A stretch of DNA of 64,000 nt from Moniliella sp. 'wahieum' (Eukaryota). Within the stretch, counting starts at the first letter, position 1. Every line of letters begins with the position of its first letter. The position numbers were made by a program, and so were the translations under genes. Shown here in pieces: positions 2,716-59,271 of the stretch. Location of the stretch: NCBI GenBank assembly GCA_003971905.1, contig RSEE01000139.1, positions 1 through 64,000 of the forward strand. Direction: 5' to 3'. Under the pieces are notes generated by a model. It had not been told where the DNA came from. It saw only the letters and a list, made by a program, of their open reading frames with translations, and searched no databases.

Positions 2716-4379
2716 GAGGGCACGCGGGTGTGGCGAGTGTCCTCGACCCGGGTGGGGGAAGCAGACGACGATGACAGGACAAAAAGAGTGGTTGGTTGAC
2801 GTGGGCACGGATCTCACTAATTAATTGCATGCATTAATTGCCAGTGTCGTAAGGCCAAGCAAGCCTAAAAAAGCGAATTGGCGCTTTTAAAACCAGCTGC
2901 CCCCCCCTTAGTCGAGAGGATCACTCGTTCGACCGGGCCAAGAGGCACTTCTTGCATTACTTGCTTGGACTTCAAAGTTGAAGCTTTAGTTAAGGAAGGG
3001 TCTAAGGGTCTACCAACAGGTATTATATAGGCGTGCACAACAATGCAACTCGTGCTACCAAAGGCATACGACCAAGTAAGGAGGGAAGAGGGGGGGATCA
3101 GTACTGATCCCTGCGCGCGTATACGCTCCCACGCTCGTACGCTCCCCCTAGTCTGTCCGACCTCCCAATGCTAATGTCCTACGCTGTCCGGATGTTTTCC
3201 TACGGGATCGCCAGGGATCGCCCACAACAGAGAGCACGTATTATACTTGTCTCCCCCCCCATCCCCTCAATACAGCCGCGCTGCACCTGGATGTCGTCCA
3301 CCGGGGCCCCGACATTCAGGAAACACAGTCCAAGCGGGCAGCGGGCGAAAGTGAGAAGAAGAGAGGGCATATATGGAGAGAGGTAAGGAGAGAGGGCCAT
3401 GTGGAGAGAGAGGTGGGGTGGAGAATGGCTGAGAGGTGCTCAGCCCTGAGCCTCAGGACTGAGCCTCAGGCCTCAACTGTATTCCGTACTTGTGCTCCTG
3501 AGGCTCCTGAGGAGCATCGAACTCATTTCTCATCTCAATCCGACGGGGAGAAGTGCTGCGTACCGACACCTGATGATACCCAGTGCGCCCAAGCCTGCCC
3601 CATTCAAAATCAAAGCGTTCAGTTCAGCGTTCAGTTGAAAGTTCAGGCGCTCAGGGCTGAGCCTCAGCTCACAGCAGGCTTATAGCTTCAGGGTGTATAC
3701 AAGTTCACTGTTTTCAACTCAACGAACGTTTTGTTCCTGTCCCGTCGAGTTCAACGTCCCACGTTCCACCTTCAACCTTAGCGTTCGTTCAACGTACTGG
3801 CCTTCAGATCTCAGAGACCGACGGGTGGCACCGACGCATGGACACTGATACTGAGTATTACTGACTTCAAGCATCCAGCTTCAAGCTTCTAGCTTCAAGA
3901 GCTTAGTATATCTATCGCCTGCTATAGCTTCAAACTTACAATCGACACACCCCAGGCCGAGGCCCGAGGAAGAGACTGTGAGAACCGGCTGCAGTGGGCC
4001 GGCACGGCACGGCATTGACACGCCATCAATTCCATTGCAGGTCCCAAGTTCCCAGTTCCAAGTTCCAAGTTCCAGGTTGCATCATAGTCGGTGCGGGCAT
4101 CGCGGGCGCATGGAGTGCCCCCTGTGGGCATCGATCTCGATCATGCCATCAAGCCAGCATGTTCTTGCATCGTAGCATCTATACGACCCTGCAAGCCTTC
4201 ACGTTCCCCAACACACGCAGGCCGGCAGGCAGGTGGGAAGCAGGTCCCGCTCTAAGAACGCAGCTGACGCAGGGACAGCGGGCAAGCAGAATGAGATCCA
4301 AGGTCTACGATCTAAGATCTAAGAGCCAAGATCCAAGATCCAAGATCCCAGATCGATCGAGAGTCAATGGGAGCTAGGG

Positions 4380-5220
4380 ACTAGTTCAGTTCGTCGGAAG
4401 GGAAGGGAAGCGATGGAAGGAATAGGGAGAGAGAAAGGAGCGAGCGAGCGAACGGCAAGAACGCGGTAAGGCCTCAGGCAGCAACAGACTGAAGCAGCAC
4501 AACGAAAGAGAAAGGAAAAGGGACAAGAGACAGGAAAAGGCGACGGACAGGAAAGCGAAGCAAGTGTCGGGTCAAAAGGCAAGTCAAGTCACAGGGCGAG
4601 TCAAGCCAAGGCGAGAGGCGAGAGGAGAGGCAAGAGGCGAGAGGCGAGAACAGAGAGTGTCTGCGGGTTGGTCGTGGAGATCCAACGAGGAAACAAACGC
4701 ACACAACAACCGTCGAATAGAAATGGGTAAGGAGAAAAAGAGAAAAGAAAAGAGAGAGACCGGAATACAAAACTACTACATAGCGTTTAGTAATACGGGT
4801 AGAAATACGGGAAGTGGTGGAAGTGGAAGTGGTGGTGGAAATGGTGAAGGCGAAGGTGGTGGGGGGTAGGTTACCAAGGTACAGGTCTGCCGAGTACGTG
4901 CCCCCCCACAAAACGGGTCAGGTTTTGGTGGAGGGGTGATAGGACCACACAGAGATGGGGGAGATGGGAATCAATAAGGTGTCGCAAGTCGGGCCCTTGG
5001 ACCTCCGTGGGCCAAAAGGCCGCGGGACCCAAGTGCGGGACAAGGACCGAAGCGGGCAAACATGGAGAGGGGAAGCCTAGAGGGGAAAAGGAAAGAAAGG
5101 AGAGAGAACGAGTGGAAGAAAAAAGGAAAAAAGACAAAAGCAGGGAGAGGGATGAGAGGGGAGAGGGGAGAGGGGGGATCCACCAGCTTAAGAAAGAAGA
5201 AAGAAAAAAGAAAAAACGGT
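4380..5220 (+). repeat. Purine-rich (GA) low-complexity tract, pyrimidine-rich on the PMA sense strand
   Basis: Long runs such as gaaaagagaaaggaaaaggg, gaggcgagaggagaggcaagagg and aagaaagaagaaagaaaaaagaaaaa. Confidence 0.7.
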
Positions 5221-5339: not shown

Positions 5340-8300
5340 TCAAGTCAATAACCGACCGCCAAAAAAGCATAGTAGGCACTTGAGTTGGACGCAAGTGCCT
5401 GACGTGCGCGACGACTGAGCAGCGGAAAGGGGGATCCGTTTACCCTCCTCGTCCACCTCGAGACGAGTGGCGAACGAGTAAATGTCGGGCTCGCCCTCCT
5501 CCGACTTCTCGTGGACGACAGTAAGGCGCTGGAGGTTGGTGAAGAAGTCTTCCAGCACCTCGTTCTTGGTCGAGCGAACGCGACGGCCCATACGGTTGAT
5601 CCACTCGAGCTTGTTCAGCACGTAGTACACGACGGTAATGATGATCGTCACACCAATCGAGTAGGCCCAGACACGCACAACGGTAACCACGTCGGTCCAG
5701 TTGTGCTTGTTGTGGCGCAAGCGAGGCGAGTGGATGTACTTGGCAATGGGGCCACCGAGCCAGCCAAACAGAGTGAAGAGCGTAGCAAGCGCATCGACAC
5801 CGAGAATGGCACCAACAAGCTCCCAGGAGGGAATGGTGTTCTCGTCCGAAGTGCCCGAGCCAAGACGCGTGACAAAGATGAGCCAGTTCTCCGTGAGCGA
5901 AACCTCAAGAAGAGGATAAGCTGCACGTTACCGAAGTTCTGCACGATACCACCGTTGGGAAGGAAGAGGGTGCCACGGACAATCCAGGTACCAGCAGCAA
6001 GCAGCGCACCAAGGATGGTCGAGATAACCCAAATCTTCGGCAGCTGCCACTCGACGGGCTCCTTGGCAGCAGGGCATTGTCGTACGCAATGGCAATGGTG
6101 GCCAAGTCGGCAAAGAGAGCAATGAAGACAATCAGGTCGGCGCGGATCACCTCGTCACGGATGCAGATCGACAGAAGCAGGTAGATCTCAAGGTGGAGAC
6201 AGAGCGAGATACGGTACTGAATGTAAGCCTTCATACGGTGGAAAATCTGGCGAGCGACCTTGATCGAGGTGATGATGGTCGACAGGCCCTCGTCGAGGAA
6301 CACGACGTCAGCAGCCGAGCGAGCAGCGTCCGAAGCACCCTCCACAGCAATACCACAGTCAGCCTTCTTGAGCGAGGGAGCGTCATTGACACCGTCACCC
6401 GTCATGGCAACCAAGTGACCACGGTGCTGGAGCATCTCGACGACCTGGTACTTGTGCTCAGGGAACACCTCAGCGAAACCGTCGGCAGCCTCAATAAAGT
6501 CGTGAATGGCCGAGCCAGCAAGACCGCCCGAGCCAATCAGGCGCTGCGAGTCGTACACCTTGGTGCCGAGCGAAAGCATCTTGCAAGTCTCCTTAGCAAT
6601 AGCGACAGCGTCACCCGTAAGCATCTTGACAGCGATACCAAGGTTCTGGGCCTCAGCAATGGTAGCAGCCGTGTCCGAGCGAGGGGGTCAAACATGGGCA
6701 GGAGACCAAGGAGGTGCCACTCGCCATCGTTGATGGCGACACCGAGCGAACGGAAACCACGGGACGCAAAGTCGCCAGCCACCTTGCGGTACTGGGCGCC
6801 TGCTCAGGGTCGGGCTGGCACAGCTTGAGAATAGCGTTGGGGGCACCCTTGGCAGCGATGTACTGCTTGCCGTCCTTCTCAACCTCGGCAGTGATACGCT
6901 TGGAGACGGGGTCGAAGGGAGTGAAGCGGTGGGTGATCCAGCCCGAGGCGAGCTCCTCCTGGGCACCGGGTAGTCCTTAAGGGTCGAGATGGTAACCTTG
7001 TCAATGGGGTCGAGCGACTTGATGTTGTGGGACGAGGCGAGGGCAGCGACAGCCATCATGAAGTTAACGTCGACACCTTCCGAGGTGAAGGGCTCGTGGA
7101 TCGAGAGCTTGTTGGCAGTAAGGGTACCAGTCTTGTCCGAGCAGAGCACGTCGACACCAGCAGCGACTCAATGGCAGTAAGCTTCTGCACAATAGCCTGG
7201 CGCTTGGCAAGGTAGGCAGCACCGACAGCCATGGTGGTGGTGGTAACGCAGGGAAGACCGACGGGCACACCGACAACAAGGAAGATCAGTGTAGGTGAGC
7301 AAGTTGTTCTCCTTGGGCTGAGCAATACCCGTGTGGCGGAAGAAGCCCGAAATCCAGAAACCAACGACGAAGGCCATGACAAGAACCAAAGAGCGGTACC
7401 AATCGAGTCCATGACCTTCTGGAAGTGACCCTGCGACTCACCGCCGAGCACGAGGGCAGCGGTGCGGCCGACGAAAGTCTGCTTGGCAATGTCCGTGCAG
7501 AGGACGAAACCCTTCCCACGCTTGCAGCCAGTGGTGTAGAAGACCGTGTCACCAATGTGCTTGTCAACGGCAAGCGACTCGCCAGTAATGGCCGACTGGT
7601 CGCAAGCAATGATAGCGGGCCTTTGTCGACACCCTCATCGTCGTCGTCATCGTGGGCCGTGGCACGAGCCTTCTCGAGAATAGCGGCAGCCTGAGATCCG
7701 TCCTTGTCCTCGTAGTCAGCCAGCAGGCGACCGTCGCAGGGAACCGTCTGGCCATCCTGAACAATACGATTTCACCGGGGGCGACCTCACGAGCTTCAAT
7801 TTCAACCTCTTGACCGTTGCGAATAACCGTGGCGCGGAGCGCAATGCCCGCCTTGAGCTGAGCGACAATGTCGCCAGCCTGCTTCTCCTGGTACCAACCG
7901 ACGAAGGCGTTCAGGGCCAAGATACCGCAAATGACACCCAAGTCAATCCAGTCACGCAGACCACCGGCAAGAGCGGCAGCCAGCTCCATAACGTAAGAAT
8001 GGGACCCTTGAAGAAACCGAGGAACTTGAGGAAGAGGTTCTCCGACGGGGCCTCGAGCTCATTGTACCCGAACTGGCACGGCGAGTCTGGACGTCCGAGT
8101 CGGACAGACCCTGCTGCATCGAGGTCTCGAGCCTAAAGGAGGGGAAAGAGTTAGCAGGCTGAATGCCAACCCGGGCGAAAAAGAGAGGAGACGTACCAGC
8201 TGGCGGGGACCTTGGCAGCGACGGTCTCCTGCTCGCCGTCCTTGTTGACGCGGATCTCGTGGACCTTCCACGGGCGGAGGAACTCGCGCTTGCGGACGAC

Positions 8301-8426
8301 GGTGATGTTGTTGTCTTGTTCCTCGTCGCCGCTGTGGGCCTTTTGGGCCTTGATGAAGTCGATGAGCGAGGCGTACTCGTCGTTGACCTGGGCCCCGTAG
8401 GAACCCTTGGGCAGGTCGTCGGCCAT
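5340..8426 (-). CDS. PMA1: Plasma-membrane P-type H+-ATPase (P3A)
   Basis: Motifs [10 protein letters not shown] (phosphorylation site), [30 protein letters not shown] and [11 protein letters not shown] at 8426; intron near 8134-8195 (GTACGT...GCTAAC...TTTAG). Several frameshifts; the true stop may be nearer 5440. Confidence 0.95.
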
Positions 8427-11400
8427 GGTTGGCAGAGGGTGGGGTGGGGGAGGGAGGGAGGTGTGCGCGCGAGAAGAACGAGAGGTGAGTCACTGGGTGG
8501 GGGGGTCGCGGCCGGGAGGGCGAGAAGAGGGGCGGGGGTGGAGGGGGGGGGCGAGGCGAGAGAAAGACCAGCAGCGACGGGCGAAGCGAGCCCTTTTAAC
8601 CACGCCGGGAGAAGCGTCTGTGCACCAGACTGCCTCCCCCGCGCACCAGCCTGAACGGCGGCCGGGGCACGCGGGCAGTGTGGGCGAGGGTTTGTTGGGC
8701 GCTGGGCGCTCTGGAGAGTGAATCTGCATTCTGCATTCTGCATCGCCTTGGATTTTGCACTTTGCCTTGCGTCGGCCGGTGGCCTTGCGACGCTGTCTCT
8801 GGCTCGGCCTGTGCGCGGCACCAGCCCAGCCACGCGCGCCCGGCGCATCACCTGTCGGCCTGATCACCCACACACTGCGCTGGCGCCGGCGCAGCACGGG
8901 AGCGCGGCCCAGAGCGCATCCCACCGCGCGCGCTGGCCAAGTGCGATGGGTGGGTTGCGCCCAGCCGCATGCATGGGTATCACTGCATGATCAGCGTGGT
9001 GCCGCTGATCAGCGATGGGGTAGGGTGCATGCAGCAGCATCGTGATCGATGACAGGGATCACACGTACGACACATGACATCACCGCCGCCCTCTGACTCT
9101 GACGCCTGAGGCTCTGGGCGGGCGCCACTAGCCACTAGCCACTAGCCGCAGCCTTCCCGGGGGGCGTGCGGCAGCCGCTCGGCGTAATTCCATGGGCGAG
9201 CGGGATCGCCCGCACCCCCGCCCAGGGAGCGTTGAACGTGAACGTTTGTTGAGCACTGCGCGTTCGGCCCCGCGCCCGCACCGCGCCACTCTTCCGGGAG
9301 CAATGCAGGCCGGGGGCGCCCTGCCGGCCGAGACGGGCGGGGCGCATGCACACCTGAGGCTTGGCTGGCTCCGTGCCCGCTGCTCCCTCCGCACGGCGCC
9401 AGTGCAAGCTCGCGCCCAAGCGGATTCTTTGTCGGGTCGCAGTGGTCAGCATGCACCACGGCCAGCTCCCCCAGTGGCAAGGCGGCTGGGGGGGAGCGTA
9501 ACCGCACAGCGCTCCGGCAAGGCTGATGCACTGATGCACCCCTGACTAGTGACCGGTGACCGGTGACCCCCCGTGCATAGTGGGCAGTACGTTCCGAGGC
9601 CGCGGTGGGAGTGAGTTCGGGATATGAATCTGAGCGCTGAGAGCGCAAGCGAAGGCTGGTGTGGCCGTCGTGTGGGCGCGGCCGGCGCTGGAGGCACGGG
9701 CCCTGTGGAAGGCCTTGGCAGGGGCTGTCGACCAGTGAGCCGTGCGTGACGTCCCCTAGGATCGACATCCGTGCATCAGCCTCTCCCCACGCGCGCGCTG
9801 GGCTGGCCACCGGGCACTGCGCCGCCACTCGGCCACACGCGGCAGGTGGCTGGGATGGGATTGAATGATCGAGGGTTAGGTTGGGTTGTGATCTAGGCTC
9901 TGGCATTGCCTCTCTCGTCTCTCTCTCTCGCTTCCCCAGGCCGCCGTGGGCCGACCTGGGCCGACCAGTCAACGTAGTCAACCCGTCAGTAGAGTATGAA
10001 TCTTGAGTTCACCCGGGACGATGTTCAACCAACCAGGCCGCGCGGCAGCTCAGCGCGTATGACCCCTCCCTGCCGCTCCACCCAGTCAAAACCACAACGT
10101 TCAGCGTTGTCAACGCGTCAGCGTCAACGTGCATCGCTCTCACGTCCACCCTTCCAGCTTCACCGCAGGCCTCGCCGGTCTTTCCGATCATTGATCTGAC
10201 CGATCATTTCGATCATTCCGGCTCGCGGAACGAGTGGTCGATCATCGATCAGATCTCAAAGGAAGCCAGAGCGAAGACGCTGCGTCGTGGCTCCATCGAC
10301 GTTGGATCCAGCTCCTACGTCAAGCTTCAGGCTTCAAGATTGCAGCTATGTAGGTTGTTTGCGCTTCAAACTGAATATTGGCTTTCTGGGCGTGTGCATG
10401 GCTAGCATGAGTAGCATCGCGTTGCACCCATTTTTTCGGAGCCATTCTACCCCCTGCCCTTGCTCTCTTCTTTTCGCTCCGCTCCAGACTCCTTGGCGCC
10501 TTGGCATCTACTTTCCAGAGCGCGCCTGCCCAGCTTGCTCGGCTCGGAGCTCCGCCACATCCCCATATGGCTGTACACACCCTCTTCTCTGTGTATAGGA
10601 AACCGTACGCATAACCGGCATAACGCATCTGCATCGCCGGTACCCCCTTGAAGCGTATAGACTTCACATGTAACTAGTCACACGTGACCGTCACACGTCA
10701 CGGCAGGTGGCGCTGCCGCCTGCTAAATACCTGGTCTCGTTTTCCCGGTTCCCCCCGCCTAGCCGCCGGCCTTCTGCTTGGTACAGCAGCCACTAGTCAT
10801 GCCTCAGGGGCAGCGGCAGTGTGTGGTAGCTGGTACTGCTGCAGCCATGTGTGGCGGGTACCGGTACCCAGCACCGTGACCGGGTGACCGGGCGCCTTGG
10901 TTTCGGTCCTGTCCCATGCACCATGTCCCTCCACTGGCCGCGGCGGCAGCAGCGGCGGTGGAAGCGGTGGCGGCGCCGCGCGTGGCCTGGACCTGAGGCC
11001 TGCGGGAGCGCCGGAGCGCCTGCCTGTACTAACGGGTACTGAGTACTGACTGGGCGCTTGGCTTTTTGGTAGGAGGATCTGACATGCTGACATGCGGATC
11101 TGCTGACATGCATGGCAAGAACAGCGAGCATGCATCATGCATCATGCATATGCAGGTGCAGGTGCATGAGCCTGATGGGTGAGCCAGCGCTCACCGGACC
11201 AGCACACCGGAGATCTGCCGGGCTGAGGACCTAGGATCTGAGGATCTGAGTCCTGCGCTGTGGTTTCGCCTGGGTTGCGGGCGAGGCAAGGATCACTGAC
11301 ACCAGGGTCCCCAGTATCGGCGCAGCTAGTCCCTAGTCCCCCTCGCTGGAAATTCAACATTGCACCTTGCGCATCCCTGAGAAACATGCGTCATGCATCA

Positions 11401-14400
11401 TGCATCATGCACATCATGTCTTCCGACCAGCGGTCTCAGATCTTATATTTGCCGGATTCACCGCCCCATGTACATGTCCATGTCATCGCTGACACCGCTG
11501 TCATCCCCTCCACATTCCACCACCTCCACCACCCCGTCTATTCCCGCCCGTCCCACGCCCCCTTCGCTACCGCCCCGTTCGCGTGGCGCTCCCAATGCCA
11601 GATTGGTGTTAGATGTCGATGGGAGGTTGAGATGCGAGATCTGACATCTGGGAGATGTTGAACGTTAAACGTTTGAATGTTGATGATTGATGCATGATGC
11701 ATGTGATGATCAACTCAGTCGATGAAGCTGAAGCGCAACCATAGGACCCATTGACAAAAAACGTCTCTCCACACGCACGCATCCCAAGTAGAACCATAGC
11801 AAACAAGACCTTTTCCAATTTCAAGCTTCAAGCTCCAACCTTCCTGGTGCGAGCTTCACAATGTCACAGGGCGCACATTATGTGCATGAGCGCATGAGCA
11901 CCCCGACTGAGTGGTTGGCATTTGCGAGAACCCGAGGGTGAATCATGCATCAAATTTCAAATTCCAATCGAACCAACACAGAAAAAAGGGCCAGGAAAAT
12001 GGGCAGAAAGATGGGCAGAAGGATGGGAAGGATACGCATGGGAATGGGACAGGAGAAGGGCTGCGAGAGATAGACATGGCCAGAGGGCTGCTCAGCTGAC
12101 CAGCCATTTTTCTGGCACAACCGCCAATAAAATGCCATCCATCACAAAAAAAAGTATAAATACAACAAGTAACTATTGTAACTAGTAACTTGGAACATGG
12201 AACATGGAGCATGGCACGCTGCGCTCAGCCCTTCAGCCGCTCCGCCGCTCGCTGAGCGCTGAGCTCAGGTGGATTGAGCAGGAAGAATGGGAGATACTAG
12301 TCCTGCTGGATCATCAATCAGGCGCTCTGCTGGACCTCTTCTCTCTTCTCTCTTCTCTCTCTCTGAGATCTGACCGGTGACCGGTGACCCGGCTCTCGGC
12401 CGGCGGACTTATCGTTGTCTTGGCTGGCAGCCGTTCGTTTGCGCAAAGCGCTAAGTGCTAATGCCGAGAGAGGGGCAGATGCCGAGGTGGTATCTGGTCC
12501 CTGCTGGTCGGTCGGTGTGGGCTGGGCTGTGGATGTGGTCGGGTCTCTCAGGACGTTTGCTTCAGAACCTCCACTCAGTAACTCAGTTACTCAGTTGTAC
12601 TCAGCCCCAGAGAAATCCGAGGACAATATCTCGAGGCACACGCTGGTCTGATATATAGGTCACTGGTCACACCATCACAGACCTGTCACACGCAGCCTAG
12701 TTGCCCCCCAGGATCCTGGGTGACATCATCGAATTCCAAGCCACACCCCCGCAATCCCCGCCCCCCCCCCCTCGTTTTGCGTGCCAGCCTTGTCCCATGT
12801 CAGATGTCACAGACAAGTCTGAGGCTAGAAACTTCAGATCTCAGAAGCTTCAGAGGCTTTAGAGGCGTCAAGCTTCAGGGCCTCAGGGCGTATGGGTTCG
12901 GGGTTAGGCTCATAGGTATTACTCCGGCGGCGTCCGAGGCCGCGGGTATATTTTCCCCCTGTGCCCTGCTATCGTTTGCCAGGTGTCATGGATATGAATA
13001 TCGCGGTGCTTGTTCGTCGTTCCTCTATTGCTAGGTACGAAGTACTAGGTCTTGCGGGTAAAGCCGGAACCAGCGTATAACCGAGTACCCGGGTACTACC
13101 ATGGTAACGCAGTAAAGCCGATAATCGATAATCGAAAACCCGATACAGCGCCCGTGGGTATTGCGTGACGCGCGCTACCGCATGTGAGAATATGTTCGTG
13201 ATGCGCGTGATGCATAGTGGCTCTGAGGGATCTGATGCATGATACACATGGTATGGTGCATGGCGCATGTGATGCATGATGCATGGTGCATGGCGGCCGA
13301 CTCCATCGACCATCCCTTGTCAACAAACGCATGTCATTGGTAGGCAGCCACATAATGTCACATGTCACAAATAACCACAGTCCTCTTAGAGCTTAGATTG
13401 TTGCTACAAGGGAGGGATAGTGGAGTGGATGGAAGAGTAGGTGGACGCGTGCCGAGTAGGTAGGTAGACGAGTGGATGGACCATGGTCGATGGACGACCA
13501 TCCGCGCGCCAGATGGACGACAGATGCTCACCGGCCTCTCAGTATACTGGTGATGGTCACTATGGTCACTCACTCCTTAGGCCTTACCCCCCTTCTCATC
13601 ATTCCGTTGTTACTAGTTACTGCTCTGGCATATTTTACTGGTTACTAGTTACGCGTTACGCGTCACTCGCGCACGACCAGCAGCTCTATAATAGTTACGA
13701 GTTACTCGTTAAAGCTGCTAGTTGTTAGATTCCTTTTCGCCACCCCATCTCGCCGCCCGCGATCCATCTTATGCATCATCGATGAGAGATGTGTTGGTGG
13801 TCGACGTTACGCGTTACGCGTTACTAGTTACGCTTACGTCTGTCCAGTGTGCATTGTATGTCCCTATCCTCATTAACAACGTCATTAACGTTTAACGTTT
13901 AACGTTTTACGCGCGTCGCAATCACGTTTAGCGTTCAACATCATCGACCATCGATCCTCCGTCCACATCTGCATCTGCATCTGCATCATTAACGACATAT
14001 CCCCTACATTGTCCCACGGTCGTGCGCGCGCGTCCTCGCATATATATCGCCACGCGCCACTGCAGATCTTTGCCTACCGTTGCAGGCTCTGCACCGCCCA
14101 GACCGCCAAGAGCCGCAAGAGCTCCCCCCAGGCCCCAGGCCCCGTTTCTATCCGTCGACAGCAAACAACAGGCACCAACACACACAACACGCAAAGTGGA
14201 CTGATTGGTTCAGCCCGGTTCCTTTAGCGTTAATTCCCATTTTCATCGATCATCAATCAATTTTGGAACACGGAACGAATATTGACGAGTGCGAGAGAGC
14301 TGCCGTGAGTGCATGTGCATATGAGCCCCAGCGCGAGGGGGGCGCGGTACTACGTCGGGGCCGGCCGGGTCGGGATCGGGATCGTCGGGATCAGAGTTAC

Positions 14401-16670
14401 TTGTTAGTACTTAGTACTTTTGGTCGCCTTGGTTCCTTGGTCGGAGTGGTCGGAGCGCCGCGCATCCAATTATGCATCTTCAAAGTGTCCTACTGGGAAT
14501 CGCCTCCCCCCCCCCCGTCTCTGCTGCACCGTCGCCACCGACGCCACCCACACGAGCCGAGACAGGAAACCAAAAGAATATGACCGTACGTTGAACGTTG
14601 AACGTACGACTCCTGAGAAACTGAGTCCGAATCGCGCCGCGCATGAGGAGGGGCGCGTGGGTTAGGTCTGGGTGTGTTTGTGTGCCAACTCTAGCGGCAC
14701 ACAACAGCTGCACATCTACCCTGGGGGGCCACTGAGTACTGACTGAGTCCACCGTGAGCCGGGTCAGGTCGATCGTACGGCTGAAGTTGAACGTTGAGAT
14801 CGAGTTAAGAGTTGAGTAACTGCGATGTGACAGGTACGAGCGAGGCTCGAGGCTGGAAATCTATGCACCATGGCGGAGAGAGGATTATCGATCATGGTAT
14901 GGTGCAGCATGACGAAGTGTTTGCGGGGTACATCAGGGTTCAACTTATCAGGGTACATCCCCAGCCTCAGGCCACCTCGGGGTACATCTTTTGGTAAGCA
15001 TCTCTTTTGGCGCGTTGTCAGATGTGTACATGGTATGCCCTGTGGTATATGTTCCCGTATGCCCCGAAGTCGTAAGCCCGAAATGGGGAAGCTGTGCCTG
15101 CGCGTCTTCGATCATTGCGATCATTTTCTCTGATCGAATCGACGACTTCCGTCTGCAGGTACATTAGTTGTGTTGCGGCCTGAACGTCGACTAGGTACTA
15201 GGTTCTACTTCGTTCCTACCCCTTTCGCGTTCTGCATTCCTCGACACATGTCAATGTAATGCCACGCGGGTCAGGCCAGGGCTGGGCGGCTACTGCTCGC
15301 TGGCTTGCACGCCGAGCTCCAAGCAGCAAAGTGGACACCACCCCGACCTCCAGTCTCCCCGTTTCTCCTTGGCCAAAAAAACCAGAACGTTGTTGGCGCA
15401 CGAACGATGCTTGGCAGAGGCAGTACCGTAACGGTCTGCGTGGATGCATGTATCGCAGGCGACAATGGTGGCTCTCTTGCGCTTCCCCGTTATTCAGCGG
15501 GGGGGGAGGGGGGGAGGGAGGAAGGTATATAACAGTGTGCATGATTTCGTACGCTACTGACATTTGACCCATCGACTCTCATATCTCAAGAAAGGCAGAG
15601 AGAAAGATCAAGCTGCGCGTGTCTCTCTGTGCGGCGCCCCCGAGGGCAGCTGGTAGAGGAACTGGAAGAGATTTTGCTATACATTTCTGCTGCATTCTGC
15701 ATCATCAGGGGCACGATCCCTGAGGGCCTAAGGCTTCACCTTGAGCGTTGAGCCTGAACGTTGTTGAATCTGTACCGCCTCACACACCATTCACGCTTTC
15801 CCCGCCTTCGCCTGGTCCATCCGCCGCTCAGCGCTCAGCGCCCAGCACCCATAGTGGATCGGCATTGGATGTCGGGGGGGAGGAAAGACACACGGCCAAC
15901 CAGGATCGGCCGGGGCAGTGTGGTCCAGCATCCCGTCGTCCTCTTTCGTGAAGAGGCGAGGAAAGACGGGGTGAGGGCGGTGAGGGCGGGCCGCAGGGAT
16001 TGCCACGTACGTTTAGCCTTTGCCTAGAGCAGCGATGCCCAGGAGGGCAGGCGGGAGGAGAGGGGCAAGCGGGGTGGGTATTGGATGTAGAGCAAGGAGA
16101 TTGATGTGACTGGAGCAGGGCCGAGTGTGGGGCAAACCACCTGGGCCTGGATTGGTTGGTCAGAAAAATTGGTGCCCTGTGCTGACAAACCCGCTGACAG
16201 CCCAGGGCCGAGCAGGGCAGAGCCTGCGGAGGGGGGCACAGGGGGGGCAGCGCAGCACCTGGCCGGGCGCGGGTAGCACAGTGGCGCCGTGCTGGGCTGC
16301 ACGCGTCGGGGGGCCTGGGCCGGGCCGGGCTCTGCCGAGGCTGCGGGGCAGAGGCGGCGGGGCCGTGTGGAGGCGGGAATTAGTAATGGAGACGGCACGG
16401 GGGCAGCGGGCGCGGGTGCTGCACCACGCTGGGTGGGTGCATGCGGTGGCCCTTGCAGCTGCAGGCTGCATGCCCCAGACGGCCAGGGCGGAGGGAGCGG
16501 ACGGGGCGAGAGGCCTGTGGCCAGAAGCCAGGCCCAGTCTGGCCCAGCAAGGCGGCAGATCCAATCCAAGCCGCTGGTCGGTGCCCAGCAGCCGCTCGAA
16601 CCAGCTCGCCAGCCCCACCTCCCCGCGCCCGACCACCTTCTCCGGCCCCGTCTCCGCTGCGTCCGCCGCC

Positions 16671-41585: not shown

Positions 41586-41622
<37 letters not shown>

Positions 41623-46962: not shown

Positions 46963-47789
46963 TTACTCTTCGTCTCCTCGGTGGGCTTCTCCTCCTTGGC
47001 ATCCTCCTTGGACTCCTCCTTGGACTCCTCCTTGGACTCCTCCTTAGGGGCCTCCTTGGACTCCGGCTTGGACTCCTTCTCGATCGGCTCAAGCACCTCG
47101 CCCTTCTGGGCCTTCTCGAAGGCGGCCTTAAACGACTGTGCGTCTGCAAGCACAACATGTCAGTACAATCCCTCAAAACAAACAAGGGTACAAGACGTAC
47201 TGTCGGCGTTGGCAAAAGGATGGCAAGCGTTTCAGCTTGGGGCTCACCATCCGACACATCCGCCGCTACGTTGTACACCCACACCGGTCGGACGAAACGT
47301 TGGGCTTGAGCTCAATGTCCGAGGTAACTGTTCAGCCGAGTTAGCATTTCATCTCCTGCATTCCGAACAGGAATTCAGTTCGGAATTCAGTAGAGGTAAT
47401 ACACACTGTAGTGATTCGCGCACACCTTGAGCGTCTTGTCTCGTCGCCGCATCACAACACGCACCTTCTTGGTGCTTGTGCTGGAGCAGACGCACATCCC
47501 CAGTACCCTCTCTTTCCATTGCTTGCCCTCGGGGTCCGAAACGGAAAGCTTGGCGCGGCTGCACACAAAAAATTATTATTAGGATGCTGAACTGAGCGTT
47601 CAGAGCAATAAACGGTCCAAAGCAGACGGAGACGTACACCTTGTACACCACATTCTCATCCTCCTCGAGCGTCTTGGTTCTCGACTGCTTCTCGAGCTTG
47701 ATGACCGGCTCGTAGTGCGGGTCGTTCTCCTCGCCGGGGTCGTTGCCGGTGGAGGCGAGGGGGTCGTTCTTAGGCTCGGTAGCAGACAT
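46963..47789 (-). CDS. YRB1: Ran-binding protein 1 (RanBD1)
   Basis: DPHYEPVIKL...KTLEEDENVVYK, RAKL.RF...WKERGTGDVRLLQH, RRDKTLKVCANH, WVYNVAADVSDGEP.AETLAI, AQSFKAAFEKAQ and an acidic KEES-repeat tail. Several introns. Confidence 0.95.
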
Positions 47790-48833: not shown

Positions 48834-49073
48834 TGTTGGCCTAGGGAGCCGGACGGGCAGAAGGATGAGGAGAAGGTGATGGATTGGAGCCAGAGTTGGG
48901 TCTGGGTACAGAGGCATCTATATAGGAGGCTGGACTAGGCACAGGGACAGTGAGTCACACAGGAGAGAGTGCAGGGCACAGGGACAGTGACACGCAGGGA
49001 CGTCAGCGTGGAAGCCGATGGAACCGAGGCGAACCTGGTCTACCGACTGGGAGCCAGAGGATCACAGTCAACA
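48834..49073 (-). repeat. LTR copy 1 (3' LTR in element orientation)
   Basis: tgttggcctaggg...cacagtcaaca, TATATA at 48919-48924, internal direct repeat ggcacagggacagtga. Confidence 0.93.
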
Positions 49074-49790
49074 CCCCCGCTGGCCAGGGAACCCGGAGAC
49101 ATCGGTTGTGGGATGAGCTCCTGCCAGTGGATGTAGAGAGGGGAGGACTTGAGTGGCAACCGGGACGAATGGCCTGGAGTTGTGCATGGCCACACGACTG
49201 GCCTACACCCCCGCTGTCCAGGATGACACCTGAACGAGCCGAGCGCTTGTGGTTGGTGTATTGTGCGACCGCCAGATGCTTGTAGAAGTCTTAGAAGTAA
49301 AAGTAGTAGGGGTTGCGCCCCGAAGCGATTTGGTGGGCAAAAGTAAAAAGCACCAGTTATGTAGTGAAAGAAAATTGGAAACTTGGAGTAAATGCGGTCC
49401 AAGGTCGTTTGGCATCAAAATTGGATGCGTTTGGTAGTTGTTTGGTTCCGCATGCCTGGTGCCAGTGGGGTCCATTGGGCATGGGAAATGAACGGGCGCT
49501 ATGCGTCAACCGTCTTGATCTGTTTGGGTTCTCTTTGTTGTTGAAAAAGAGGAGTGGAAGAAGTTGGGTGACCCCCCCCCCATCCTTTCCCCAGGTGCCC
49601 CGGATGAATTGGCAATCCGGGGCGTGTAGCCGTGGGTGGGGCACTTGATGAGCAGCCACCCCCGCTTTCTGCGATTCGCCTGCGCCGTTTTGTCGTTGGA
49701 GGAATTTCGTCTCGTTGACGATACCCGACACGTTTTGTTCCGTCGTGTGTTGTCCCTAAAAATCATTGCCCCATCTGTGGGGGACGAGTG

Positions 49791-49866
49791 TGCCGATTGT
49801 GGCGGTAGTATGCCGATTGTGGCGGTAGTATGCCGATTGTGGCGGTAAGGTGCCGATTGTGGCGGT
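49791..49866 (+). repeat. 20-bp tandem repeat (TGCCGATTGTGGCGGTAGTA) x ~4 inside the element; second copy near 50949-51023
   Basis: Read directly from the sequence. Confidence 0.9.
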
Positions 49867-49987
49867 GGTGTTGTTGGGCGGGAGGACGGGTGTGTCTTGT
49901 GGGCTTGGCGGCTTAGCTTGGGCTTGTAGGCTTGGGGGTGGGCTTGCTTGAAGAGCGCTCCCCTTCCGGGGGATCAGATTGTAACTC

Positions 49988-50227
49988 TGTTGGCCTAGGG
50001 AGCCGGACGGGCAGAAGGATGAGGAGAAGGTGATGGATTGGAGCCAGAGTTGGGTCTGGGTACAGAGGCATCTATATAGGAGGCTGGACTAGGCACAGGG
50101 ACAGTGAGTCACACAGGAGAGAGTGCAGGGCACAGGGACAGTGACACGCAGGGACGTCAGCGTGGAAGCCGATGGAACCGAGGCGAACCTGGTCTACCGA
50201 CTGGGAGCCAGAGGATCACAGTCAACA
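49988..50227 (-). repeat. LTR copy 2 (shared central LTR)
   Basis: Appears identical to copy 1 by eye. Confidence 0.93.
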
Positions 50228-51141
50228 CCCCCGCTGGCCAGGGAACCCGGAGACATCGGTTGTGGGATGAGCTCCTGCCAGTGGATGTAGAGAGGGGAGG
50301 ACTTGAGTGGCAACCGGGACGAATGGCCTGGAGTTGTGCATGGCCACACGACTGGCCTACACCCCCGCTGTCCAGGATGACACCTGAACGAGCCGAGCGC
50401 TTGTGGTTGGTGTATTGTGCGACCGCCAGATGCTTGTAGAAGTCTTAGAAGTAAAAGTAGTAGGGGTTGCGCCCCGAAGCGATTTGGTGGGCAAAAGTAA
50501 AAAGCACCAGTTATAGGTGTAGTGAAAGAAAATTGGAAACTTGGAGTAAATGCGGTCCAAGGTCGTTTGGCATCAAATTGGATGCGTTTGGTAGTTGTTT
50601 GGTTCCGCATGCCTGGTGCCAGTGGGGTCCATTGGGCATGGGAAATGAACGGGCGCTATGCGTCAACCGTCTTGATCTGTTTGGGTTCTCTTTGTTGTTG
50701 AAAAAGAGGAGTGGAAGAAGTTGGGTGACCACCCCCCCCCATCCTTTCCCCAGGTGCCCCGGATGAATTGGCAATCCGGGGCGTGTAGCCGTGGGTGGGG
50801 CACTTGATGAGCAGCCACCCCGCTTTCTGCGATTCGCCTGCGCCGTTTTGTCGTTGGAGGAATTTCGTCTCGTTGACGATACCCGACACGTTTTGTTCCG
50901 TCGTGTGTTGTCCCTAAAAATCATTGCCCCATCTGTGGGGGACGAGTGTGCCGATTGTGGCGGTAGTATGCCGATTGTGGCGGTAGTATGCCGATTGTGG
51001 CGGTAAGGTGCCGATGTGGCGGTGGTGTTTGGGCGGAGGACGGGGTGTGTGTGTGGGCTTGGCGGCTTAGCTTGGGCTTGTAGGCTTGGGGGTGGGCTTG
51101 CTTGAAGAGCGCTCCCTTCCGGGGGGATCAGATTGTAACTC

Positions 51142-51381
51142 TGTTGGCCTAGGGAGCCGGACGGGCAGAAGGATGAGGAGAAGGTGATGGATTGGAGCCA
51201 GAGTTGGGTCTGGGTACAGAGGCATCTATATAGGAGGCTGGACTAGGCACAGGGACAGTGAGTCACACAGGAGAGAGTGCAGGGCACAGGGACAGTGACA
51301 CGCAGGGACGTCAGCGTGGAAGCCGATGGAACCGAGGCGAACCTGGTCTACCGACTGGGAGCCAGAGGATCACAGTCAACA
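51142..51381 (-). repeat. LTR copy 3 (5' LTR in element orientation)
   Basis: Appears identical to copy 1 and is followed by the TSD CTGAG. Confidence 0.93.
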
Positions 51382-52620
51382 CTGAGCGAACGTGGTGGGC
51401 AAGTGTTTCTCTGTTCCGTTGACGATCATCGAGATGACGCGGACGTCTCTGCTACGGGAAGCAACCTATGAGGCATTGTACTCAGATCCACCTACCGCCC
51501 GCCCCCGCACAGATGCCACCAAGGATGTGGCAATCCGATTGGAGTTTAAATTTAACGTTTCATGTCGAACTGAATGTCGAGGTCAACGTTTCAATCTTCG
51601 ACTATAATAAACGCCCGCCCTCTCTTGTCGGTCGATGCACGATGCAGGATGATCGATGATCGATGAGGCCTCGGCCTCAGCGTCCTCAGCCTGAGGATAA
51701 TACTGCGATCGATGATTCTTCGCCTTGTCGCGGTCCCACAGCCGACTCCACACCACCACATGCTCAGGGCGGATGCTCGGGTGGGACGATCGAGGATCCC
51801 GATGAGGTCGATGAGGGAGAGAGAGAATGCCTGTCTCTATCTCCCAGCCTCTGGGCGGCGCAAGAAGGGGCTCGTCCTTTAGCTTCTCCAGCTCTCACTG
51901 CTATACTCTAGCCACAACCCCACCGGCGGGAGGACAAACAGAAGAGTGGGCACACCGTGGCGGTGCCTGTCGCTGCCGATTGACGGTTTTGCGAGAAGCA
52001 CGTGTACCCCCCACATGCATCCATGCATCCACGCCTCCACACAACCCCAACTGAAACTGGTGTATTGGACATTTTGCTCTGGGTGGCACCATGTGTGGCT
52101 CTCCTCGAGAAGTGGCGTACGTACGTTCAACCAAGAAGAACCCCGGCTAATACCACTCAGATGGGCGTAAACCTCCAGAGCTTGACTAATTAGTACATAC
52201 CCCACAATAGATGTGTATACTGTTGCGAAAAGAGGGAACTGCCACAACCAGAGCCTCTCGAGCACCCCCACAGTATGCCACATCTATCCTGATTCAGAGA
52301 GAGGCGCCACCGCTCCCTTCAAGACCACAGCCAGCCTCTCCTGTTGTACTCTTGTGGATGGCGCTAGGCAAGGAGCGATTTGGCCGAACGCGAACATTGT
52401 GGCGCAGACTCTCGCGAGCTTAGTGTTGTTTTTTAGTTCCAAGCGAGAGGACGCTCGCGCCTTCGTATCTCTCTGTCATAACATCTTTGTTGCTTGTACT
52501 AGAGTGAAGAGTGACTAAAAAGCATATAATCGTCCATCTCCCTCATCTCTCTCACAAATCTCCCTCATACTCACATTCCCCCATCACCTCACTCCCACAT
52601 TCGACCTTGTTCTCCTCGCC

Positions 52621-53903: not shown

Positions 53904-56900
53904 CTGATTATCCTGTCATTTCTTGTGAGCCCCACTGCCGTCACTCAGGCCCTCGCATTCTTTTCTTCCCCCATCTCTTCAAGCTTCAAGCATACCTTCT
54001 TTTTGTAATTTGTTGCGATTTGCAGCTGCCGGGCAGCTGCGAACATGTCGCTACAGGAATCTCTGAGGCTAACGCCGTATTATCATTCTACATTCTATTC
54101 TTCAACTCCCTCCTTCGCCGTCTAATCAGTACCTTTTGATGTATATAAAAGATCCTATGCCAAACATGTGTGTGTCCCTAACAAGTGGTATGCTACCTTT
54201 AGCCGACAGAAAATGTCTTCAACGCGTTCTGCACAAATTCCATTCCCTTTTGACATTGCTTTCCTGCAACGTATCATGGTATCTGTTACGGGTTGCGTTG
54301 GATCCGAAATGGTCCGAAACAAGCTAAGGCCCGTCTTCTCTGCCCATGCCCGGTAGAGCGCGTTCCGAAGTCAAACCAATTTTGACGATGGTTGGTTGAA
54401 CCAGGTACGGTAGCCCGAGTAGCCATCCTAATCAAGGCCACCAAACTTCCGGTATCTTTGCGACGACTGTCGCCTCCTTCCCCGACGCTTCCTTTTCGTT
54501 TCTCTGTGCGCCTGCGGCAACCGATTCCTGTTTTGACCCGTCTTCCTTTCTACATCCCCTCTTTCTCGTCCTCTCTCGTATACCTTCTCGTCCCTTCCCG
54601 CCTATCCTCTCCAGCTCCTTCCCGTTTTCTAGCCAATTGATTCAGTACAGGCAGCTTCCCCTTCACTTAGCTCTCACCTCCTCTTCCGACCTCGTCCTGC
54701 AGTTCTTCATCCGTCCAGTATTTCAGTCATCATCACTTATCTGACAATGGCGCAGTTGCAGCCCCGAGCATTGAGAAGGGGGAAGTGCCCGCTCCTCTCG
54801 TTATTCGTTGCTTTGGGGTGCCATCGATAGCACATGCGACAATGCTCTCTCATCCCTTTGTCGCCATGGCGTAGTTCGCGTCATCAGTGGTGAGTGGAGA
54901 GGGGAGCCAGGGCCACGTGTTGGGCAAATGAGTGGGCAATGCACTGTGCATCGTCTCCCTGCTGGACGGACCAGGGGTGGATATAGATGCGCCTCAGCGG
55001 TGGGGGGGCAACACTTGCTTTATACGGCGGGGGCCTCCTTTCATATAGGTGACTTATTCTTGCCCCCGTCGTCTAGTGGGAAATTGCACTATTACTCTTC
55101 TGTATCACGCCCCATTTGCCGCCTCTCGGTTTCAACAAGTTAAGACAAACTCATATAGCATGCTCACCCAGGGGTGCATGGATTTGGGTCGTACGAACAT
55201 GGGCGTTAGTATCACGGCAACATGCCTCTTCGCAAGGCAAGGAGCTGTGTGGCCGATGAGAAGTCGCTGGGTCCCACAAGGACTATGCTGAAAAAGATAT
55301 GTGAAGCGCGGACACCCGGCATTATATGATTCGAATCATATGTGCTTGCTTCCAACAGTCTGCTCTCTGATCTCCGATCTAATCTCAGTTCGGAACTTCT
55401 AGACCGTAAGAGGATAATGTCCTAATAAGCGATTTGACCTTGGCATAGCGCTACGGCCATCCCATGGCTCGGCATAAACTTCACAGGGAGCTCGCGCAAT
55501 GTCGTGATGTATCCCGCCCATCGAGCTCATCAACAGAGGAGAGAAAGGGGCTAATATTATGAGGGAAGAACGGAGGGGGTGTTTACTCATCTAGTATCCC
55601 ACATGTACCTCTTTTCACATGTCCGACGTCGGAGACCTGTACCCAGGTTTTTTCTTTCTCGTGTTGGATGTTGCTGTTGACTAGAACTAGTGACTACTAG
55701 CGGCGTTGTGATATCCGGCACCTGGTTGTGCATGTGATACATGCCAACACGTGCGCATAGGGGTCACCGGTCACATGTCACAAGGGGCCGCACGAGAACC
55801 GTGTAAAAGAGGTGCGCCAAAGCGTTCAGTTCAGCCACAATAAGTTACAAAAGTCCGAATTAAGCCCCCCAGCTCACTTTGACAGCCACTAGCACAGCTG
55901 TCAAAGTTGGGTCATTAGCGGATCAGCGCATCAGCTGCATCAGCGTCTGGGAAACGGAGGACGCTCCTGTGACACGTTGTGACAGCTGCCAAAATGGATG
56001 GCGCAAGATATCGGTACGTAAAGGTGTGGTGCTCTTGCGGCTTTTACATCACGCACGTCATGATGCAAGAGAAGCATGACGCGCAGACGGCATGTGGCGT
56101 AAAGCGGGGGACAACGCGGGGCCCCGCAGGCCCCGCGCGGTGGGCCAGAGAAGACGGCGATCGGTGTGCTCGTGATCTACATCTTTCTGAATGGAGCAAT
56201 ATGGAATGCACATGATCTTATTCACATGCACATACCACAACAGGTCTGGATGGCGTGCACGGGCATGACAGTTGGAGGTGGTGGCGATGCGACGATTCCG
56301 AAGTCCACGGGGTACGCATGTGTTCTCAGACGTAGGGAAGCGTACCACACATACTTTGACTGGAGACATTTGCCTTCGCTTACGCCCGGCTGGACAGAGC
56401 GCATAGGCTGACCGAACTGAGCGCTGCTCTCTGCAGGCACACTGTTGCTACCTATGTTTCAACAGCCTTTCAATTTTTGGTTGGAGGTATCTTATGTGGT
56501 TGGAGACTATAGTCCCCCCGCTAGACCCTATTTTAACTATCCCGTTCTTCCCTACGACTTTGTACACCCTTCCCTCATTTTCTCATTGCGGAGGCTTATT
56601 GGCAAAAGGAAATGAAAAATGATTAATGAGGGTCTCGTAACTGGGTTATCGGGGGGCTGACCCAACGTTATTCGATGTAAAAGGGATCCTCACTCTCCCT
56701 TCAAAAGTTTTTGAAACTTCATGTTTCTTTCGTCCCTATAGCGTCTCGCTCTTTCCCTGTTTCCTGCACTTCGCATCATGTCCTCTGCTCTTGTTTCTTC
56801 CCCACGAACGATTGCTACATCCCTTGACATAGTTTCGACTCTGGTCTCCATCGCCTTAGCCCCGAGACTGTGACAGGTCCCCTCTTTGTTACCTCTTCTT

Positions 56901-59271
56901 AACGTTTCACGTCACCCCCTCAACGCAGGCTTAGCATATGCTTGCTGAGCGTTCAGGGTTCAGGCTGAACGTACGCTGAACGTTGAACGTGCTGAACGGA
57001 GATAGGCATTTTGTGGGGTTATAGGCGTTTGTTAATTGACGCTCGACAAACGTTTTTTTATACAGGTTGTTGGGACTGGTTTTGCTGGCGGGAGCGGAGA
57101 TCAGAGGTTTTGATTTATAAGTTTTCCTGTTACGCTTTACGCGTTACGCGTTACGGGCGCTGATCGATCGCTGATCGAAGATCGACAATACGCCCCTTAG
57201 GCCTTATTCCTAGTACCTAGTATGCGCCGTCCTGATGGTGTTTGAGCTAACCATCATTTCATAACCATGCGCCACCAGGGCTCAGTTGAACGTTGAGCGC
57301 TGAGTCGAGGCTCACACTAAGAGTGCTCAGCCGTTGAGGCTCGGCCCTGCTGATGGTTTAACGTTTACTCACACTGTCTATTGGGCGCCTCTCAGGCAGA
57401 GTTGTGAAGAGGCGCTGAAAGGGTCCGTGAGCATATGTGAGCGCCCTGAGCGCCCTGAGCGCCTAAATAAGCCACAGCCTGAGCGCCTAAGGCCCTGAGC
57501 CTGATGGCGCCTCCACCAGGCGGGCTGTTGTTTCACGTGCCGTATTGACCTCACTTCGTACTTACGGCTTACGCACCACCGCACGACGGTATATCCTGTG
57601 CTACTGCTCTTCAGTCCTCGGCCTCGCACCTCATGCCTCGTGTGATATGTGACATGTGACATGTGAGTGATCTCAGGCATCTCATGCATCACGCAATGGA
57701 TTATGGATCTTTTCACGAATCATAAAATGCGGGGTGTGGAGGGGACGCAGATGTGTTACGTGGTCCGGTAGGGTGTGACCGTCTGCGTTCTCTCCGCTGC
57801 CCGCCACTCGGCGGACGCGGGACGAGGCGGGATAGGTTGAGTTGAGGTGGTGCTGGGGCCTGCTGGTACCTGTCTGGACGAGTCGTGTGCAACAAAGCAA
57901 GTCAGGCCAGTTGCAGTTTGGCGGCACGGGTGCCGATCACATGCACATTCGCTGACAACCATCACACATCATGCGTCGCGTCGTTTATCATGTGCATCGT
58001 GTGCATCATGCCCATCGCTGCTCAGCGCGTCGCTCACCTGAGCGCCATCTATGCGTTGGCCTTAGACGCTTAGAGCTTAGACCCGGCGCCCTTGCGCAGT
58101 AGCGGTGTGGCTGGAGGGTTGGACCTAGGGTGGAGGGGCTAACCACCAGCGCTTGAGATGGCCTCATTTTTGCGGATGATCAAGTCCATCGCGCCGATCG
58201 GTGCATATAATACTGCACCAAGTAGTAGTTACTATACGCGTTGCTTTTGGCTGTCGAGGCGCGCGCTCCTTCTGCCCACGCTTAAGCGCGTATGCGCATA
58301 TGCCGGTGCCGGTTCGAGCTCCGTTGCGAAGGGTATGGTTGTTGCCATCGGCAGGAGTCGGGAGTGGCCGGACTGCAGAGTCTCGGTGTGGGCCCCTGAG
58401 AGTGTCGAAGTCATTAGTATCCTCGCCATCTTGCTTGATATAGTGACTAGTGAAGCTGGAAGCTACATTGCCACGACAGTTACAAGTTACGTGTTACGAG
58501 TCTGAGGCCTTCAGGGCGCAGCCGACCTCGGGCTTGCGTATAGGCATCTGGAATCAATACCTGCATCGAGGGATCTTCTGTGAGTATGTGAGTTGGGATT
58601 GCAACCAACGCATGAGAATAACAAGCTGCTAATACAGAGATTGAAAAATGTGACGGGATATGACATTGGATTGCTTTTCCTTTCATAGAAAGCGGCATTG
58701 GTTTCTCGATGATCGATGACATTCGATGACAGGAGAAGGACCGAGGCGTAGTAGGGCGTCGCGCGATGTCCAAGGGCCCCTCCGGGTCCTACCGAGGAAC
58801 CACAAGGGACAGAGGTAGCACGCAGCCCTGGACGGACCGGCATGCGCTCGCCCCCCTTTTTGACACCATGCGTGACAGTGGCAGGGCGTCTGTGTGTTTC
58901 TGGTTGCCTCATGCGCCGCACAGTCCGCAGGGTCTCATCTCCTCCAAAAAGTTTTCCCGCAACCCCACGGCAGCAGTGGGAATCGATGGCGGTCTGGGAC
59001 GTCCGTGTGAATGGAACTGGGGAACAGCTACGCGCTTAGTTAAGCGCCAAGTACCAAGTGCCAAGTGCAGCATCCCCCACCCTTGTCACTCGTCACTCTG
59101 TCACCATGCGCAATGCGGGCAATCTTGCCTCTTACCTTCATCACTTGTCCTTTCCGCATCCTCCTCCGCCTGTATAACCTCTCTCTGTCATTCGCAGCGA
59201 CCACACAGAGTCTACGTTTTAGCCTTGCGCACCGCCCCGTTAAGTATCACCCACATTCCTGGCCGGCTCCC

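Follow-up and report, generated by a model that had tools for sequence, protein, structure and literature searches.

Flank-templated 7-bp TNA-palindrome units in a 64-kb fungal sequence: candidate footprints of hairpin-type transposon excision

The window and its period-7 motif

The sequence analysed here, referred to below as the window, is a whole stretch of 64,000 nucleotides (positions 1 to 64,000, forward strand) of contig RSEE01000139.1 from Moniliella sp. 'wahieum'. Its base composition is 55.6% G+C, and its gene content is eukaryotic, with genes for a succinate dehydrogenase flavoprotein, a fructose-1,6-bisphosphatase, a cyclin, an IBR protein, a P-type ATPase, emp24, a GH28 polygalacturonase, and ribosomal protein S9. 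The closest named relatives of the fructose-1,6-bisphosphatase belong to Ustilaginomycotina (Kalmanozyma, Tilletiaria, Violaceomyces, Jaminaea, and Tilletia; 67–70% identity), which places the source among smut-related basidiomycetes, with no near relative represented in the protein collection searched. The Pfam scan took in 108 of the 174 open reading frames (ORFs) of at least 110 aa, and the Pfam-supported ORFs total 9.7 kb of the window. The non-coding DNA contains units of 7 bp, each consisting of a TNA triplet (N, any base) and a 4-bp palindrome xyy'x', where x' and y' are the complements of x and y. These units, which we call scars, probably stem from a known kind of event, the excision of a DNA transposon, which here takes a form that is new and shapes the genome; no such element was identified in the window.

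A preliminary description of this DNA had reported dozens of short arrays of such units. The pattern was borne out, with counts far above both shuffled and Markov backgrounds, and all the arrays given as examples (35056, 44372–44416, 13885, 11131, 35676, 57650, and 11036) were found in place. Exact tandem arrays with a period of 7 bp numbered 48, against 0.7 expected from 20 dinucleotide shuffles; for comparison, 12 exact arrays had a period of 6 and 22 a period of 8. In 29 of the 48 arrays, the repeated unit was A-xyy'x'-T plus one base, which is the same TNA-plus-palindrome unit in another phase.

The sequence TNA-[4-bp palindrome]-TNA occurred 121 times, compared to 8.7 ± 2.8 in 100 dinucleotide shuffles and 22.5 ± 4.4 in 100 sequences generated by an order-5 Markov model. 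Non-palindromic cores between two TNA triplets showed no excess (159 vs. 146 expected). With the control flanks ANT, CNG, and GNC, 9, 22, and 16 matches were counted vs. 9.3, 22.5, and 22.5 expected, and palindromic cores of other lengths were not enriched (2 bp, 34 vs. 34.8; 6 bp, 3 vs. 2.2). The motif is thus specific, since the flanking triplets must be TNA and the core must be palindromic and neither shorter nor longer than 4 bp. All 12 four-base palindromes that are not pure AT were present as cores, as had been claimed; pure-AT cores were also seen at low counts (TTAA 4, AATT 2, and ATAT 1), and TATA was absent among the 121 matches. The resulting 15 core types had fairly even frequencies. 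The reported near-confinement to non-coding DNA also held: 1 of the 121 matches lay inside a Pfam-supported ORF. Four non-coding blocks had a lag-7 autocorrelation 3 to 7 times that of the background, a signal that was absent from gene-rich blocks.

The 121 matches formed 94 chains, of which 72 had a single core, 17 had two cores, and five had three. The densest block (9000–15900) is a gene-poor region of ~7 kb with 36 of the 94 chains; its ORFs had no Pfam match, its lag-7 4-mer autocorrelation was 0.0495 compared to ~0.01 at other lags, and period-7 runs covered 13.7% of its bases. Bins 8001–16000 contained 50 of the 121 matches, and density reached ~6 per kb in the 9–16 kb block. The second intergenic block (34200–36500; 12 chains, lag-7 autocorrelation 0.0367) includes the arrays at 35056 and 35676, the third (42000–46900; 12 chains) includes (TCA/CCA-AGCT)x6 at 44372–44416, and the fourth (55760–58720; 11 chains) includes 57137 and 57650. 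A smaller block with seven chains lies at 2570–4480. Period-7 arrays in which a triplet one step off TNA (CAA, TTC, CCA, or GAA) stands beside a 4-bp palindrome were observed at 4294–4354, 8723–8743, 9124–9147, and 12191–12208. Such arrays may have arisen from scars that mutated and subsequently grew; alternatively, target choice may be less strict than TNA.

Anatomy of single scars and chains

The two N bases of a match were identical in 101 of the 121 matches and complementary in 8. The identity of N means that the TNA triplets are direct repeats and not half-sites of a perfect palindrome, and it contradicts the earlier suggestion of clustered sites for a dimeric protein. Selected binding-site arrays of such a protein, or an assembly or sequencing artefact, would have in their favour the clustering of matches in intergenic, possibly regulatory DNA. 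Any palindrome works as a core, however, and the core is set by the neighbouring bases (see below), while an artefact would respect neither coding DNA nor TNA; together with the identity of N, this makes both explanations extremely improbable. A perfect inverted duplication of TNAxy was ruled out likewise, since N is the same rather than complementary.

Same-N TNA pairs at a distance of 7 bp with a palindromic spacer were found 101 times vs. 2.5 expected. No enrichment of same-N pairs was observed at distances 3 and 5, and it was ~1.8-fold at distances 6, 8, and 9. TNATNA, that is, a period of 3, was not enriched (63 vs. 54.4). Odd palindromic spacers of 3 nt at period 6 numbered 25 vs. 9.3 expected, and those of 5 nt at period 8 numbered 6 vs. 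2.4.

The most frequent length of a maximal period-7 run was 12 bp (29 of 89 runs). Among the 77 single-core runs, 26 had the form TNAxy-y'x'-TNAxy or its mirror image y'x'TNA-xy-y'x'TNA; the bare 10 bp occurred in just seven, and a two-sided 2-nt match occurred in none. A plain 7-bp tandem duplication of an odd palindrome y'x'TNAxy was ruled out by the lack of two-sided matches. In clean 12-bp period-7 events, the spacer was the reverse complement of the adjoining 2 nt in 38 of 114 cases, where 12.5% was expected. The TNA occupied repeat positions 1–3 in 29–30 of these 38 events and the opposite end in one. Clear enrichment of this reverse-complement spacer rule was confined to period 7 with 5 matched bases, so that a hairpin process acting at any repeat length was ruled out.

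Scored by the fit of their flanks, the 101 same-N matches comprised 29 that fitted the left flank only, 33 the right flank only, 23 both, and 16 neither; the matches that fit both flanks are array interiors. These flank matches indicate that the palindrome is built from the host dinucleotide adjoining TNA. In 54 of the 72 single-core chains, the core was the palindrome predicted from a flank, compared to ~12% by chance. N was G or C in 77% of the scars and in 72% of the TNA triplets of the window, and a G/C preference at N was rejected, as the usage only mirrors the supply of triplets. A strand bias of C over G at N, hinted at in the 38 clean events, was also rejected (29 vs. 18 over 62 events, p = 0.14), and an apparent A/T preference 6 nt from N was put down to neighbouring units in chains.

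The dependence on flanks bears on the Tc1-like mechanism that the preliminary description had offered as an analogy. In the Tc1 footprint TA-CATG-TA, the palindrome derives from the tips of the transposon and does not vary between sites. An element of Harbinger or Tc1 type that duplicates 3 bp (TNA) and leaves behind 2 nt of each terminal inverted repeat (TIR) would reproduce the Tc1 order of target duplication, xy-y'x', and target duplication, and TNA is the classic Harbinger target duplication (PMC12477816). Both components of this proposal failed, in that the repeat is 5 or 7 nt long and the palindrome is copied from the host dinucleotide beside TNA, not from a family-specific tip. With 15 core types at fairly even frequencies, and with 109 of 110 mPing excisions in yeast being precise (PMC2836001), we regard such an element as a very improbable source. 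We also considered palindromic (P) nucleotides derived from a 3-bp TNA duplication; this would solely give TGA with TCGA and TCA with TGCA, combinations that make up a minority of matches with a weak correlation, and the model was rejected.

Multi-core chains were examined with the same rule. Twelve of the 22 wholly fitted a scheme in which m copies of the core given by the left flank are followed by n copies of the core given by the right flank. Of the 12 chains with mixed cores, four fitted fully, with a chance of ~0.4% each. These were the three-scar chain tc-TGA-GATC-TGA-CCGG-TGA-CCGG-TGA-cc (12364–12387), in which the flank "tc" gives the left core and the flank "cc" gives the right cores, and the two-scar chains gt-TCA-ACGT-TCA-CGCG-TCA-cg (35842–35858, where the rule held on both sides), ag-TAA-CTAG-TAA-TGCA-TAA-tg (44515–44531), and gg-TCA-CCGG-TCA-CATG-TCA-ca (55764–55780), all on the forward strand. 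Adjacent cores in chains, which stand on the same TNA, were identical in 15 pairs and different in 12 by manual count.

Chains and longer arrays raise the question of microsatellite slippage, in which quasi-palindromic heptamers would form hairpins and expand preferentially. Arrays do reach 3.6 copies when exact and 5 to 9 when imperfect, the core is identical in 15 of 27 adjacent pairs, and some uniform arrays break the flank rule. As the origin of the scars, slippage is nevertheless quite improbable: 72 of the 94 chains are single units, below two full copies; the length spike lies at 12 bp, and the phase is fixed on TNA; 12 chains combine different cores on the same TNA; perfect 6-bp palindromic units were found in none of the 12 period-6 arrays; and the T-N-A requirement is left unexplained. 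Slippage would yield at least two full copies in arbitrary phase and unit, whereas most loci are 10–13 bp long and TNA-phased; a minority, the 48 exact arrays, has the form expected of slippage. Slippage probably lengthens the longer arrays. The uniform AGCT array at 35056–35079 (forward strand; TGA/TCA, four triplets), in which none of the three cores is explained by the present-day flanks, is either a counter-example to the flank rule or was grown by slippage.

In the ~330 bp at 13577–13911, TTA was used by nearly all units, and the 5-mer GTTAC occurred a dozen times in a single orientation with the spacers TA, GC, GA, and TC. This suggests that the units descend locally from a few ancestors, with possible CG-to-TA changes within cores.

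Longer products were found as well. A rarer class, in which a 7-nt repeat, two inverted nucleotides, and the 7-nt repeat again follow one another (a net gain of 9 bp, +9), was present at 18 positions, and TNA was exactly central in the repeat at 13 of these (~5% expected). Examples on the forward strand are AGTCAAC-gt-AGTCAAC at 9967–9982, in which TCA is central, and TGTCATC-ga-TGTCATC at 43768–43783. Intermediates of +8 numbered 18 and 10 vs. 2.3 and 2.2 expected; the former count refers to the period-8 class with a 4-bp palindrome and one more base, represented at 11079–11095 (forward strand) by C-TGA-CATG-C-TGA-CATG-C, where the extra base belongs to the duplicated target. The direct repeat is therefore 5 nt long in the commonest product and 7 nt long (ab-TNA-cd) in the untrimmed product. 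If only 5 bp were duplicated and P nucleotides were added on one side, the +7 product would be identical, but the +9 class with centred 7-nt repeats would go unexplained; this model was rejected.

Origin of the scars

The geometry of the scars, with its 7-bp period, flank-copied core, and centred repeats, can be read directly from the window. We favour the explanation that the units are footprints left by repeated excision of a cut-and-paste DNA transposon whose target duplication spans 7 bp with TNA in the middle and whose departure leaves blunt hairpins on the flanking DNA. Such a transposon, its hairpins, and the sequence of steps given below are what we infer from the geometry. The element would integrate by a 7-bp staggered cut centred on T-N-A, so that the target ab-TNA-cd is duplicated. 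At excision, the transposase would close both flanks into blunt covalent hairpins, and host enzymes would nick each hairpin 2 nt past the tip; Artemis opens hairpins 2 nt from the tip. Each nicked hairpin would then end in a 4-nt 3' overhang that is its own reverse complement, reading cd-d'c' at the left flank and b'a'-ab at the right. As these overhangs would be unable to pair with each other, either one would be trimmed, or both strands would be ligated and the 4-nt mismatch would segregate at replication. Each descendant would then keep one overhang and have either ab-TNA-cd-d'c'-TNA-cd or ab-TNA-b'a'-ab-TNA-cd, with a net gain of 7 bp. Opening of the second hairpin at or near its tip would give the +9 and +8 products. 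Further visits to the TNAs of a scar would produce chains and short heptamer arrays, and replication slippage may add to longer arrays.

Such a model explains why the period is 7 bp, why the core is fixed at 4 bp yet free in sequence, why N is identical, and why cores follow either the left or the right flank. It also explains why 2-nt matches do not occur on both sides at once, why the 7-nt repeats are centred, and why left-flank cores precede right-flank cores in chains. The A....T hexamer palindrome arises simply because the T and A of TNA are complementary. A further scar was borne by 22 of the 94 chains (~23% of scars). By a rough estimate, ~10% of TNA sites are scarred in the densest block, and each scar offers two TNAs, so that repeat visits are plausible without any special assumption. 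Features expected of P nucleotides were present: an even, zero-loop palindrome stands at the edge of a duplication copy, and it was templated by one flank only in 62 of 101 cases. In the untrimmed products, the whole 7-nt repeat flanks the junction, as is expected of a full target duplication.

Several observations weigh against this explanation. A resident element with a matching duplication and a DDE transposase was not found in the window; no transposase domain was detected in the 108 ORFs scanned, no TIR pairs were found, and no element combining a 7-bp duplication with TIRs was seen there. Neither flank explains 16 of the 101 same-N matches and 18 of the 72 single-core chains. Ten of the 22 multi-core chains depart from the flank rule in part or altogether, the uniform arrays at 35056 and 35571 being cases of complete misfit. 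The ratio of identical to different adjacent cores is 15:12, whereas the model predicts ~3 to 1. A 7-bp target duplication centred on TNA was not found in the literature searched, as far as the sources were available. Compared to the excision footprints described from rice (PMC4423477), the scars show far greater uniformity and density. Finally, even palindromes dominate here, unlike the odd footprints of Ac type (PMC5873905), so that hAT7, the best-known candidate with 7-bp duplications, may have the wrong chemistry.

The absence of an element and a transposase from the window, the unusually stereotyped products, and the density of up to ~6 matches per kb in the 9–16 kb block would suit an element-free host process. 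In this alternative, a TNA-preferring nuclease, e.g., a domesticated transposase, or a template switch during replication or repair would write insertions of 5 + 2 nt or 7 + 2 nt. However, a 7-bp direct duplication with zero-loop palindromic bases is the expected output of integration followed by hairpin excision, and a lone break would neither duplicate 7 bp nor add one-sided inverted bases. We were unable to devise a template-switch route that demands T and A, and CNG, GNC, and ANT show no excess. A host process of this kind is therefore considered unlikely.

The scars may also have been written by something undescribed. This could be a lineage of transposons that duplicates 7 bp at nnTNAnn, leaves blunt hairpins on the flanks, and is active enough for its footprints to occupy about a tenth of the sequence in some intergenic blocks and to give rise to the heptamer microsatellites of the species. 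It could also be a transposase domesticated by the host, which would add 7-bp units at TNA sites of open intergenic DNA without a mobile element. We think this rather doubtful. The preliminary description had spoken of an undescribed sequence-generating system, a term that is too strong, as the chemistry matches the known repair of flank-hairpin excision; the dense, stereotyped signature, for its part, was not found in the literature searched. Its notion of iterated transposon footprints is favoured by the data in outline, and its alternative of hairpin or template-switch synthesis was right about hairpin-derived palindromic nucleotides and not otherwise. No published description of the pattern was found in the literature searched, outside which most subscription journals lie. 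The palindromic microsatellites of Fusarium are mitochondrial and were set aside as unrelated.

If excision with flank hairpins is the correct explanation, one genome sequence records thousands of past cycles of insertion and excision. The scars alone would reveal the target of the element (nnTNAnn) and its cut stagger (7 bp), as well as the excision chemistry (blunt flank hairpins) and the opening of hairpins by the host 2 nt from the tip. They would explain in concrete terms where heptamer microsatellites come from and how promoter-proximal DNA grows and turns over in a compact fungal genome. A simple statistic for detecting such scars in other genomes is the number of same-N TNA pairs that lie 7 bp apart and enclose a palindromic spacer.

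Other repeats, other DNA, and known systems

A metagenome scan with a pattern derived from the commonest array of the window returned 121 loci. No contig of the same organism was found among them by blastn and tblastn. Most were GC-rich contigs with unrelated heptamer arrays, and TNA grammar was present only in L079, a eukaryote-like contig. It had 11 same-N units vs. 0.75 expected, three of them from the seed array, and 10 of the 11 obeyed the flank rule by manual reading of the flanks. Units consisting of TNA and a 4-bp palindrome, with flank-templated cores, lie at 4288–4314, 4853–4872, 5683–5702, and 9999–10022 of this contig, and its four ORFs of at least 200 aa had no Pfam match. The process is thus probably not confined to one species. 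Many GC-rich contigs (L014, L016, L033, L050, L065, L069, and others) had (AAGCTTS)n near position 10000 of each, adjoining related heptamer blocks of 3 to 8 copies each, such as (AGCTGCA)n, (GCTTGCA)n, and (AGCGGCA)n. These arrays are a different phenomenon from the fungal scars.

The window also contains repeats of other kinds. A tandem repeat at 48834–51441 has a unit of ~1154–1159 bp in nearly three copies, the first two 100% identical over the compared stretches and the third 85%; it overlaps minus-strand ORFs without a Pfam match. At 46977–47092, a 12-bp repeat (CTCCTCCTTGGA-like, at least seven copies) lies within overlapping ORFs without a Pfam match and is probably a coding low-complexity repeat. 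Perfect short tandem arrays outside the TNA grammar occur at 30449–30509, 19212–19282, and 20125–20172 (GGCCCTGGTT x6.1, a 14-mer x5.1, and a 12-mer x4).

Among known systems, hAT, Transib, and the MULE Muta1 excise via flank hairpins that are opened by host enzymes, and end joining leaves footprints; the hairpin product described for Muta1 has 43 + 43 nt (PMC5499845). In Candida, the footprints left by Ac/Ds contain palindromic P nucleotides and are mainly of two types; the palindromes are centred on the complement of the base adjoining the element, i.e., they are odd (PMC5873905). The scars described here resemble these systems and V(D)J coding joints in having a short palindrome, centred at the duplication edge, between two copies of the duplicated target. 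Inverted bases are gained on one side and bases are lost on the other, and one or two products predominate in a fungal host, as far as these sources describe it. The scars differ in the 7-bp duplication with central TNA, in the even palindrome that implies a blunt hairpin, in being known from scars alone, and in being fixed at up to ~6 per kb and forming chains.

An Ac-like hAT element would leave an odd palindrome and an 8-bp duplication (7 bp in hAT7). The even class dominates (101 vs. 2.5 expected), and the excess of even over odd palindromes (101 vs. 25 at period 6) favours blunt hairpins as in Muta1 and disfavours an Ac-like hAT. The 7-bp length would fit hAT7. Basidiomycete DNA transposons with 7-bp target duplications are hAT7, described from rusts, and Kyakuja (KDZ), described from Laccaria (PMC12730594). 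In that source they are known from Pucciniomycotina and Agaricomycotina, the string "Ustilag" is absent from its main text, and its supplement gives no target-duplication sequences for hAT7; nothing in the present data ties them to the window. hAT7 is thus a candidate through duplication length only.

PIF/Harbinger elements share the target and duplication TNA (PMC12477816); their duplication is 3 bp and their excision usually precise (PMC2836001), whereas the sites described here have repeats of 5 to 7 nt and retain a scar. Tc1/mariner elements share the order of duplication, 4-bp palindrome, and duplication, with a core that comes from the element ends independently of the flanks; here the core is copied from the host flank and varies by site, being flank-built in 54 of the 72 single-core chains. 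In rice, excision footprints are a genome-wide source of small insertions and deletions; they were found by comparing two species, and most were irregular, with deletions and filler sequence; 8 of 94 were clean (PMC4423477). In contrast, one stereotyped product gives a statistical signal here within a single 64-kb sequence.

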